From a virus: 19,149 nt of DNA. A program made the translations under genes and the position numbers. Shown one piece after another: positions 17,129 to 18,838 of this stretch. Under the pieces are notes generated by a model. The model had not been told where the DNA came from. It saw only the letters and a program-made list of their open reading frames with translations, and searched no databases. The stretch is taken from UHGV virus genome UHGV-0137562, one strand, 5' to 3'. The number at the start of each line of letters is the position of its first letter. Position 1 is the stretch's first letter.

Positions 17129-18838
17129 ATGACAGACATTACAGCCAATGTTGTAGTGAGTATGCCTTCGCAACTCTTCACTATGGCGCGTTCTTTTAAA
17201 GCCGTAGCCAATGGCAAAATTTATATCGGTAAAATTGACACTGACCCGGTAAATCCTGAAAACCAGATTCAGGTTTATGTGGAGAATGAAGACGGTTCTC
17301 ACGTTCCTGTTCCGCAACCAATAATCATTAACGCTGCTGGTTACCCTGTATATAACGGACAGATCGCCAAGTTCGTCACAGTGCAAGGCCATTCGATGGC
17401 TGTTTATGATGCGTATGGTGCACAGCAGTTCTATTTTCCTAATGTGCTGAAGTATGACCCTGATCAGTTACGCCGAGAGCTTGCAGGAGATAATGGTTCA
17501 AATCTGGTTGGTGGTCTTCCGTTTGATTCTATGTATGGAGATCTCTCTACTACTGAAGATAACACAATGTCTATAAATGAACGTCTAAATTGGAGTAGAA
17601 AAACAGGTAAGACAGTAGAGCTTCCAGCAGGAAGGTTTAAAGTAAGCGGAGAGCTTGAACTTGGCGGTGTTAAGTTGAGAGGTAGATCTATAGGTTTTCG
17701 TAATAGTGACGGTACGGTACTTGTAGGTGTTGGGCAAGATAGACTATTTAATCAATCTGAAAGTACATTTCCTTATTTCGCTTCCACAAAACTTGAGAGT
17801 TTACGCATTGAAAATGTTATATGCGGAATAGAATTTGGTTATCTGAATAGAGCTGAGTTTGAAGATATACATATAAAATGTACTGGTACAGGTGTGAGAT
17901 TTGGACGCGCTGGAAATGCGGGACCACAATGGAATATTATGCGCAGATGTACAGTGGAAAGTATTGGTGGAAGCGCGATATACATGAATGGAGCAGAGTG
18001 GTGCAATAACAACACCTTTGAGCTTTGTTTCTTTGAAAGCAAGGAAAACGCAGATATACCAGCAGTGGTTATCGATTGTGCGGGAGGGTTTGGGGCAATT
18101 GATAACATTTTTATTGGGACAGAAATAGCATCTGAAGGATATGGTGTTAGGCTGAAAAACGCTAAGGCAACTCATTTTTTTGGTGCATACTTAGAATGCT
18201 ATGGGCCATCAATTTGGTTAAATGGCACATCTCTTGGAACAAAAGTTGCCGGTGGGGTATTTGCAAGACAACGAAATAACAATGCCACTGGCATTAATTG
18301 GGCAATATATCATGAGTCTGGTAATGCATCTATTGAGATTGATAAACCTTATGTTGTTGTGTCAAGCCCAATAAGTCAGGATGGGTGTGGCTTTATTGGA
18401 TATAAAGGAGAAAGTCCGGCGTCTGGCTTGGTGGTGGATATAACATCAGATCCTCACACTGAAAATATCGGGGGTGTTTCATATACAAGATACAAGGATG
18501 GATTATTTAGTAAAACAACTAAAATTGTTCATGGAGATCAAATAATTCAATCAGATTCATCTCCATCACTTTCTCTTCAGTACGAAGATGGCACAAAAAA
18601 GGTTGAAATATATAGCAACTCATTAAAAGATGGAGCAGATTTTGGTGCCACGCTTAAGGTGAATGATATATCAAGAATGCAATTCACAGCCGATGGTAAT
18701 AAAATATTACTTCCCGGACAAACTCTTGGTGTTAAAGCTGAGGAAAATACTGATACATCAGGAATTAAAACCCATAGGGTTCAACTACTTAATGAGTCAG
18801 GGTCACATCTTGGATATATTCACGTATTCTCAAAATGA
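17129..18838 (+). CDS. Tailspike: P22-type N-terminal head-binding domain plus a divergent beta-helix receptor-binding domain, 569 aa
   Basis: N-terminal about 115 aa ([11 protein letters not shown]...[35 protein letters not shown]...NAAG..VYNGQ...[24 protein letters not shown]) matches the conserved P22 gp9 head-binding domain as I recall it. The remainder is unrelated to the P22 endorhamnosidase domain, is AT-rich and Asn/Gly-rich. GGAG RBS upstream. Confidence 0.88.

Follow-up and report, generated by a model that had tools for sequence, protein, structure and literature searches.

The window analysed here is the whole 19,149-nucleotide stretch of the virus genome UHGV-0137562, and the gene under study is the tailspike gene towards its right end. 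This open reading frame (ORF, 17129..18838, + strand) starts with ATG, encodes 569 amino acids and is real and intact. A preliminary description had read it as a mosaic, in which a conserved head-binding domain is fused to a different receptor-binding module, and had set its length against the 667 amino acids of P22 gp9. Both lengths were correct, the P22 figure being that of the PDB chain. We refer to the two parts as the anchor and the module, and located the following features (pLDDT, predicted local distance difference test score):

17129..17464, + strand: head-binding (virion-anchor) domain, codons 1-112, with YDPDQ at its end (Pfam PF09008 and PDB matches)
17465..17470, + strand: 5′ mosaic junction, codons 113-114, directly after YDPDQ (alignment and ends of the phage matches)
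17465..17521, + strand: linker, amino acids 113-131, with an LRxE/DL...G motif common to the anchor-module boundary of other tailspikes
17519..18523, + strand: right-handed parallel beta-helix, amino acids ~131-465, the receptor-binding and presumed catalytic body (AlphaFold2)
17522..17796, + strand: 275-nucleotide patch, amino acids 132-223, cap and first beta-helix coils, shared at 100% identity with an epsilon15-like E. coli prophage tailspike gene
18122..18124, + strand: Glu332, within a GTEIAS motif and retained by 91 of 98 family members; candidate catalytic carboxylate
18194..18196, + strand: Glu356, within a YLECxGP motif and retained by 97 of 98 family members; candidate catalytic carboxylate, one coil after Glu332
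18524..18838, + strand: C-terminal domain, amino acids 466-569, and stop codon; beta-rich, pLDDT <50 in both models

The anchor was identified by two different approaches. Residues 1-113 match the Pfam family Head_binding (PF09008) over the whole profile (1-113 of 113, E=5.4e-67). A search of the PDB aligned Sf6 gp14 over residues 1-118 (E=8e-65, with about ten mismatches only) and P22 gp9 over residues 1-116, and nothing past these positions. That is, the roughly 115 P22 gp9-like N-terminal codons of the preliminary description were recovered by both. At the DNA level, anchor identity is 83-96% across 31 matching phage records and 1255 E. coli genomes.

This similarity ends at the hinge. In megablast searches, all matching phage records (31/31) covered only gene nucleotides 1 to ~344, and 1255 of 5426 complete E. 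coli genomes matched only from nucleotide 1 to ~340-371, while a match to the whole gene was obtained in only 2 of the 5426. When the gene was aligned with those of CUS-3, HK620 and Sf6, the DNA was conserved through AAGTATGACCCTGATCAGTT (KYDPDQ and the next codon). The last invariant column of this alignment is window position 17469, after which the sequences diverge abruptly and become unalignable. Since the alignment and the phage matches both end there, we placed the junction at 17465-17470, which bears out the recombination point suspected near the YDPDQ linker. Full-length colinear similarity to a single known tailspike was not found in the phage and PDB searches, where the matches stop at the hinge.

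Behind the junction, the linker of the window protein reads LRRELAG, and a helix is predicted at amino acids 111-119. P22-like tailspikes with other modules carry LRADL or LRIEL after YDPDQ, and homologous modules in siphovirus- and myovirus-type contexts start with LRADLAKPSG or LRGDLQKPTG. A second, softer boundary lies ~30-55 nucleotides past the junction: in a small number of other P22-like tailspikes, whose bodies are unrelated, the match runs on to gene nucleotides 369-371. Judging from these motifs, the LRxE/DL...G linker may plausibly serve as a shared recombination site.

The module recurs behind other anchors. Among its relatives at 41-84% identity (numbered here with a P), it was found fused to unrelated N-terminal anchors. 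P0019 belongs to an epsilon15-like prophage (locus L006), in which the tailspike is followed by holins and then by a GH19 endolysin. P0020, P0022, P0025 and P0026 carry a Tail_spike_N (PF18668) anchor, with P0025 and P0020 standing in a siphovirus-type context after tape-measure/GpJ-type genes. P0021 lies in a myovirus-type context inside a baseplate (sheath-initiator/wedge) cluster, and P0029 has a T7 tail-fibre N-terminus (PF03906) as its anchor. Members of the module family thus follow at least five N-terminal anchors that are unrelated to one another, the contexts being of podovirus, siphovirus and myovirus type.

One exchange has left a direct record. Between the window and the epsilon15-like P0019 gene, an exact run of 275 nucleotides is followed by 72.6% identity over the next 1042 nucleotides; the longest exact runs with other homologues measured 17-30 nucleotides. 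A recent exchange with an epsilon15-like prophage has therefore taken place over this patch. Since the guanine-plus-cytosine (GC) content at third codon positions (GC3) of the patch (0.20) is like that of the rest of the window allele (0.20-0.27) and unlike that of the rest of the epsilon15-like module (0.39-0.43), the patch was probably donated by an AT-rich allele of the window type. The spread of the anchor ending at the hinge, the at least five anchors and the 275-nucleotide identity support horizontal exchange of the receptor-binding module. The preliminary description had called this module the 'host O-antigen specificity domain': its claim of exchange stands, while the O-antigen part was an assumption, and the O-antigen clusters of the two lysogens described below differ.

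Base composition also changes within the gene. Bulk GC is 0.440 in the anchor and 0.389 in the module (Fisher test, P=0.09), GC3 falls from 0.425 to 0.241 (P=1.6e-4), the lowest value of any gene in the window, and GC at positions 1 and 2 is unchanged (0.448 versus 0.463). From about 17500 the gene had been described as AT-rich; of this, the GC3 drop is significant and the bulk difference is not. Nor does the anchor match the structural block as had been stated, with a GC of 0.44 against 0.49-0.525 from portal through gp7. The same anchor has a GC of 0.425 in CUS-3, HK620 and Sf6, and none of these three phages has an AT-rich receptor module of its own. The body had further been called Asn/Gly-rich, which holds for glycine (12.6% in the module versus 6.1% in the anchor) but not for asparagine (6.6% versus 7.0%). 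Because homologous modules elsewhere have a GC3 of 0.37-0.45 and are not AT-rich, AT-richness belongs to the window allele rather than to the family. A foreign origin agrees with it, but as evidence it weighs less than the sequence mosaicism; with the shift confined to GC3 and the homologous modules not AT-rich, the compositional argument is weaker than first described.

To describe the body of the protein, we used AlphaFold2 models, which were monomers only. Amino acids ~131-465 were modelled as a right-handed beta-helix with a pLDDT of 75-95, in agreement with the beta-helix-like body that had been proposed. Structural matches in BFVD were phage 'pectate lyase superfamily' proteins, the top one (E=3e-23, 25% identity) probably being the RHph_N3_8 protein discussed below. 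We regard the predicted beta-helix fold of the module as established, and the YDPDQ hinge followed by a right-handed beta-helix body is the arrangement of P22-like tailspikes. In the full-length model, the anchor had a pLDDT <50 with a shallow alignment.

Two glutamates stand out in the model. E332 starts strand 332-335, the middle strand of its coil, and E356, the most conserved acidic residue among the 98 family members, lies within strand 354-357, 24 residues and thus one coil further on. Y238, Y354, N293, N295 and N326 are also conserved among these members, and E303, one coil before E332, is invariant only among close relatives. E332 and E356 thus stand on adjacent coils and are the polar residues with the strongest conservation in the family; they are likely to form the catalytic acid/base pair of a glycosidase. 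The C-terminal domain is the most divergent and most AT-rich part of the protein (GC 0.356, GC3 0.20). Its identity to all homologues is 62-69.5%, compared to 85-87% between P0019 and P0022/P0023 in the same region, and many distant relatives align to the beta-helix part only, their C-terminal region lying outside the alignment. This domain is probably a separate trimerisation or distal binding domain.

By its sequence relationships, the module appears as a rare receptor module without a characterised relative. Single-sequence and profile searches found no PDB sequence relative of residues ~114-569, and no NCBIfam family was found for the module. It is not a member of the P22 gp9 endorhamnosidase sequence family, since phmmer against the PDB aligned only residues 1-116 to P22 gp9. 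Among 50,697 records of isolated phages, tblastn matched the module only to the tail fiber protein of Rhizobium phage RHph_N3_8 (MN988551; 28% identity over 94% of the module, E=1e-42). Since distant relatives were out of reach of a word-indexed search, an exhaustive HMMER search was needed: among 1.84 billion cluster representatives, it returned 128 proteins at E≤1e-3, of which 93 reached E≤1e-10, with the module at the C-terminal side and N-terminal extensions of widely varying length. A second, word-indexed profile search of 5.8 billion proteins yielded one new fragment only. For PF12708 (Pect-lyase_RHGA_epim) and PF13229 (Beta_helix), with a cut-off of 27 bits, the distant members P0037 (70 bits) and P0034 (34 bits) pass and closer family members fall below the threshold. 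The PHROG family phrog_8280 matched the full-length protein with E=1.9e-184 and the module alone with E=1.1e-66 over profile positions 116-631.

Within complete E. coli genomes, the module is present in only two (2/5426), WP4-S18-ESBL-08 and EC6563, and the epsilon15-like module variant used as query found no hosts among them beyond the same two. Compared to the EC6563 allele, the window gene shows 17 synonymous versus 6 non-synonymous codon changes (9 versus 3 in the module part). Synonymous changes exceed non-synonymous ones among the three near-identical alleles, a pattern consistent with purifying selection on a functional gene.

Taken together, we consider it very likely that the window gene specifies the tailspike of a temperate, P22-like podovirus of E. 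coli, in which a head-binding anchor and a horizontally acquired beta-helix receptor module are joined at the YDPDQ hinge. Residues 1-112 would dock the trimer onto the tail hub, and the hinge and the short LRRELAG linker would be followed by the beta-helix (amino acids ~131-465) and then by a small C-terminal domain (amino acids 466-569). By analogy to characterised P22-like tailspikes, the module would bind a host surface polysaccharide and most likely cleave it. The receptor would most probably be O-antigen and less probably capsule, and cleavage of the polysaccharide would open the virion's way down to the outer membrane. On this reading, the gene itself was assembled through recombination at the hinge or linker, from a module family that circulates among at least five kinds of phage tail.

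Several observations weigh against this interpretation. The C-terminal ~100-105 residues are poorly modelled (pLDDT <50 in both models). No Pfam domain was found in the module of the window protein, even at E≤1, and no catalytic-domain threshold was reached. A gtr/oac gene is absent 3′ of the spike, unlike in P22, Sf6 and HK620. Finally, the two complete-genome lysogens carry different O-antigen clusters. As a rule, a prophage spike corresponds to the O-type of its host, but here the host O-type gives no consistent receptor. WP4-S18-ESBL-08 has an O86-family cluster in which wzy is frameshifted with an internal stop (L011 14489-17720), and EC6563 has an rmlBDAC/manBC cluster with an ISAs1 transposase pseudogene between wzx and wzy (L009 933-5770). 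The wzy of EC6563 was found in 17 genomes, WP4-S18-ESBL-08 not among them. The EC6563 prophage is a ~7-kb remnant, and that of WP4-S18-ESBL-08 appears to be complete. With two lysogens, one of them degraded, and unrelated clusters that point to no consistent receptor, we rejected the inference of a receptor from the host O-type.

The compositional step could instead reflect a mutational or expression bias specific to this gene, which would then have come down by vertical inheritance as an old form of the P22-like spike. The modest bulk difference (0.44 versus 0.39, P=0.09) would suit such a history, as would the homologous modules elsewhere that are not AT-rich and the neighbouring immI and sieA genes, which are low in GC too (0.36-0.44). 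The mosaicism of the sequence, however, is independent of composition. The abrupt break at 17465-17470, the 275-nucleotide identical patch and the rarity of the module, found in only 2 genomes against 1255 for the anchor, already contradict vertical inheritance, as does the same module behind unrelated anchors, and we regard it as extremely improbable. As to the enzyme, it is possible, though rather doubtful, that the module does not act as a glycoside hydrolase but as a polysaccharide lyase, that its activity is epimerase-like or deacetylating, or that it is a beta-helix for binding only. Its two near-invariant residues are glutamates on adjacent coils, as is usual for tailspikes that hydrolyse their substrate (P22, Sf6, HK620). 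The conserved Arg/Lys/His/Ca-site pattern typical of lyases is not evident; H395 alone shows conservation (71 of 98 members).

The target of the module might also be a non-O-antigen glycan common to serologically different E. coli, such as colanic acid, a group 1/4 capsule, enterobacterial common antigen or another exopolysaccharide. We hold this to be unlikely. It would agree with the occurrence of 98-99% identical module alleles in two lysogens with unrelated, damaged O-antigen clusters, with a spike that has no O-antigen conversion gene 3′ of it, and with the existence of P22-like spikes that target capsules (the CUS-3 endosialidase; phiHS3, bioRxiv 10.64898/2026.05.19.726188). In addition, phrog_8280, the PHROG family with the best match, bears the label 'tail spike protein with colanic acid degradation activity'. 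But this label is an annotation only: a literature search for 'colanic acid degradation' with 'tail spike' found no supporting paper, and comparison with WcaM revealed no similarity (hhalign probability 0.4%, BLASTP E=0.14), so that we kept the colanic-acid lead only as a low-probability alternative. Moreover, only two lysogens were typed, and the EC6563 remnant may predate an O-antigen switch. A broadly shared receptor also predicts a common module, whereas this one was found in 2/5426 genomes. A combined proposal, in which the module represents an uncharacterised depolymerase family with the conserved Glu332/Glu356 pair, comprising ~100 clusters worldwide (50% identity) of which no member has a solved structure or an assay, and in which the E. 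coli receptor may be a shared non-O-antigen glycan, seems to us improbable.

The setting of the gene matches a P22-like tailspike. Given the gene order, the HK620-type matches and the flanks of the lysogens, the window is the right arm of an E. coli prophage or phage that is P22-like (Lederbergvirus-type). PHROG scans of the upstream ORFs gave the C-terminal end of the terminase large subunit, portal, scaffold, an HNH endonuclease on the opposite strand and coat, followed by a gp4-like adaptor, gp10-like head closure, a gp26-like tail needle with knob, a gp14-like protein and three ejection proteins. Next come a gene similar to sieA and a cluster of the immI type (Arc/antirepressor, Arc/Ant), and the tailspike is the last gene of this P22-type late operon. 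The closest isolated phages are the HK620-type E. coli Lederbergviruses Dewey, Louie, Bas106, APC_JM3.2 and IME10, which are 94-96% identical to the window in a whole-window search, each match stopping at 17467-17469. In both whole-gene lysogens, intS and tRNA-Arg (argW) lie 520 bp past the stop codon, adjoining yfdC, and the ORFs in the spacer between tailspike and intS (L001 9711-10229) are all <45 amino acids. The tailspike thus occupies the place expected of a P22-like one, last in the late operon, after ejection genes and immI, and adjoining int/att. Every feature of P22-like tailspikes that could be checked was found.

The gene is bordered by two non-coding features:

17080..17128, + strand: conserved leader before the tailspike start, with a hairpin (17085-17101) and the ribosome-binding region; left edge of the anchor cassette
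18839..19149, no strand: AT-rich non-coding stretch from the tailspike to the integrase/attachment end, GC 0.33

The leader can be aligned with CUS-3, HK620 and EC6563 from ~45 nucleotides before the ATG, and further upstream the sequences differ. Its hairpin was detected by a terminator scan; at the equivalent spot, a tANT terminator is annotated in HK620 and a 'bsq1 boundary sequence' in CUS-3. The same scan gave no convincing terminator 3′ of the tailspike stop. The downstream stretch 18839..19149 has a full-length match in only 2 genomes, and short fragments of it match DNA annotated as 'IS256 family transposase' in other E. coli replicons. No gtr/oac O-antigen-modification gene lies between tailspike and integrase (window 18839-19149; L001 9711-10229). 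Antisense and overlapping ORFs within 16854-18872 gave no Pfam matches, and no Rfam family was found within 16500-19149.

Further observations concern the anchor and the neighbouring genes. In WP4-S18-ESBL-08 (L002 7345-7833 and 7860-8000), an HNH endonuclease gene lies directly upstream of the same tailspike. The initial ~140 nucleotides of the anchor are a different variant there, giving an extra mosaic junction inside the anchor, and 50 of the 65 codon differences from the window fall within amino acids 1-113. PDB entry 6tgf ('exopolysaccharide biosynthesis protein') matches amino acids 7-132 of the window protein, that is the head-binding domain and linker, through its residues 47-172 (E=2e-10). 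A domain resembling the head-binding domain thus occurs also in a solved protein not named as a tailspike. Within the window, the HNH endonuclease ORF at 3871-4392 (- strand, 173 amino acids, phrog_99, E=1e-50) lies between the scaffold and coat genes with a GC of 0.387 versus ~0.51 on either side, and looks like a homing-endonuclease insertion into an otherwise conserved procapsid cluster. In the tail needle (gp26 homologue, 317 amino acids, 8289-9242), the C-terminal 'needle knob' domain (phrog_1030, E=3e-135) is annotated apart from the needle shaft family phrog_1219. From the ejection genes to the tailspike, positions 13738-17077 hold an expanded immI-type moron cluster with a GC of 0.36-0.47, made up of the SieA-like gene, two minus-strand genes for Arc-family repressors and two antirepressor genes that differ from each other (14965-15687 and 15688-16503).

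Among known systems, P22 gp9, Sf6 gp14 and HK620 gp9 (Lederbergvirus) share the PF09008 anchor, the YDPDQ hinge and the right-handed beta-helix body with the window protein, and in P22-like phages the tailspike has the same position at the late-operon end, adjoining immI and int. A tailspike from a prophage of E. coli O104:H4 likewise combined a conserved anchor of ~113 amino acids with a C-terminal part that had no database relatives when found, and has its junction at ~114. Its amino acids 114-659 confer O104 specificity (Scholl et al. 2012, PMC3303846), as shown by experiment, and an acetylase gene follows it, while the window gene has no conversion gene 3′ of it. P0019 of the epsilon15-like (Uetakevirus-type) prophage has a homologous module with 84% amino acid identity overall and 100% over amino acids 132-223. 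It differs in an entirely different anchor of 169 amino acids and phage backbone, in its C-terminal domain (69.5% identical) and in a module GC3 of 0.37 versus 0.24 in the window. RHph_N3_8 differs in its alphaproteobacterial host and its anchor. The beta-helix depolymerases 7chu (Geobacillus virus E2 ORF18), 5w6p (CBA120 TSP2) and 6f7k (Dettilon gp208) are 11-15% identical to the module, have no sequence-level relation to it, and their active sites are not transferable.

The window gene is thus a clear but ordinary host-range domain swap, with an architecture already described for P22-like tailspikes. Anchors of amino acids 1-115 with unrelated C-termini are documented for this group (PMC2629481), as are receptor-module transfer among Lederberg-, Uetake-, Kutter- and other viruses (PMC10408124) and exchange among P22-like, T7-like and Ackermannviridae phages (bioRxiv 10.64898/2026.05.19.726188). 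Anchor/module mosaicism of P22-like tailspikes has been described since the 2000s, and the window case changes no concept. The host range of phages is set by the receptor modules of their tailspikes, which also serve for predicting serotypes and as the parts grafted when phages and pyocins are engineered. The specificity of this rare module, once determined, would add one catalogue entry. The locus is a very clean natural example of a swap, with its junction placed within 6 nucleotides at the hinge, its LRxE/DL linker and its 275-nucleotide patch. Its added value lies in a rare receptor module together with an unusually well-resolved record of recombination.

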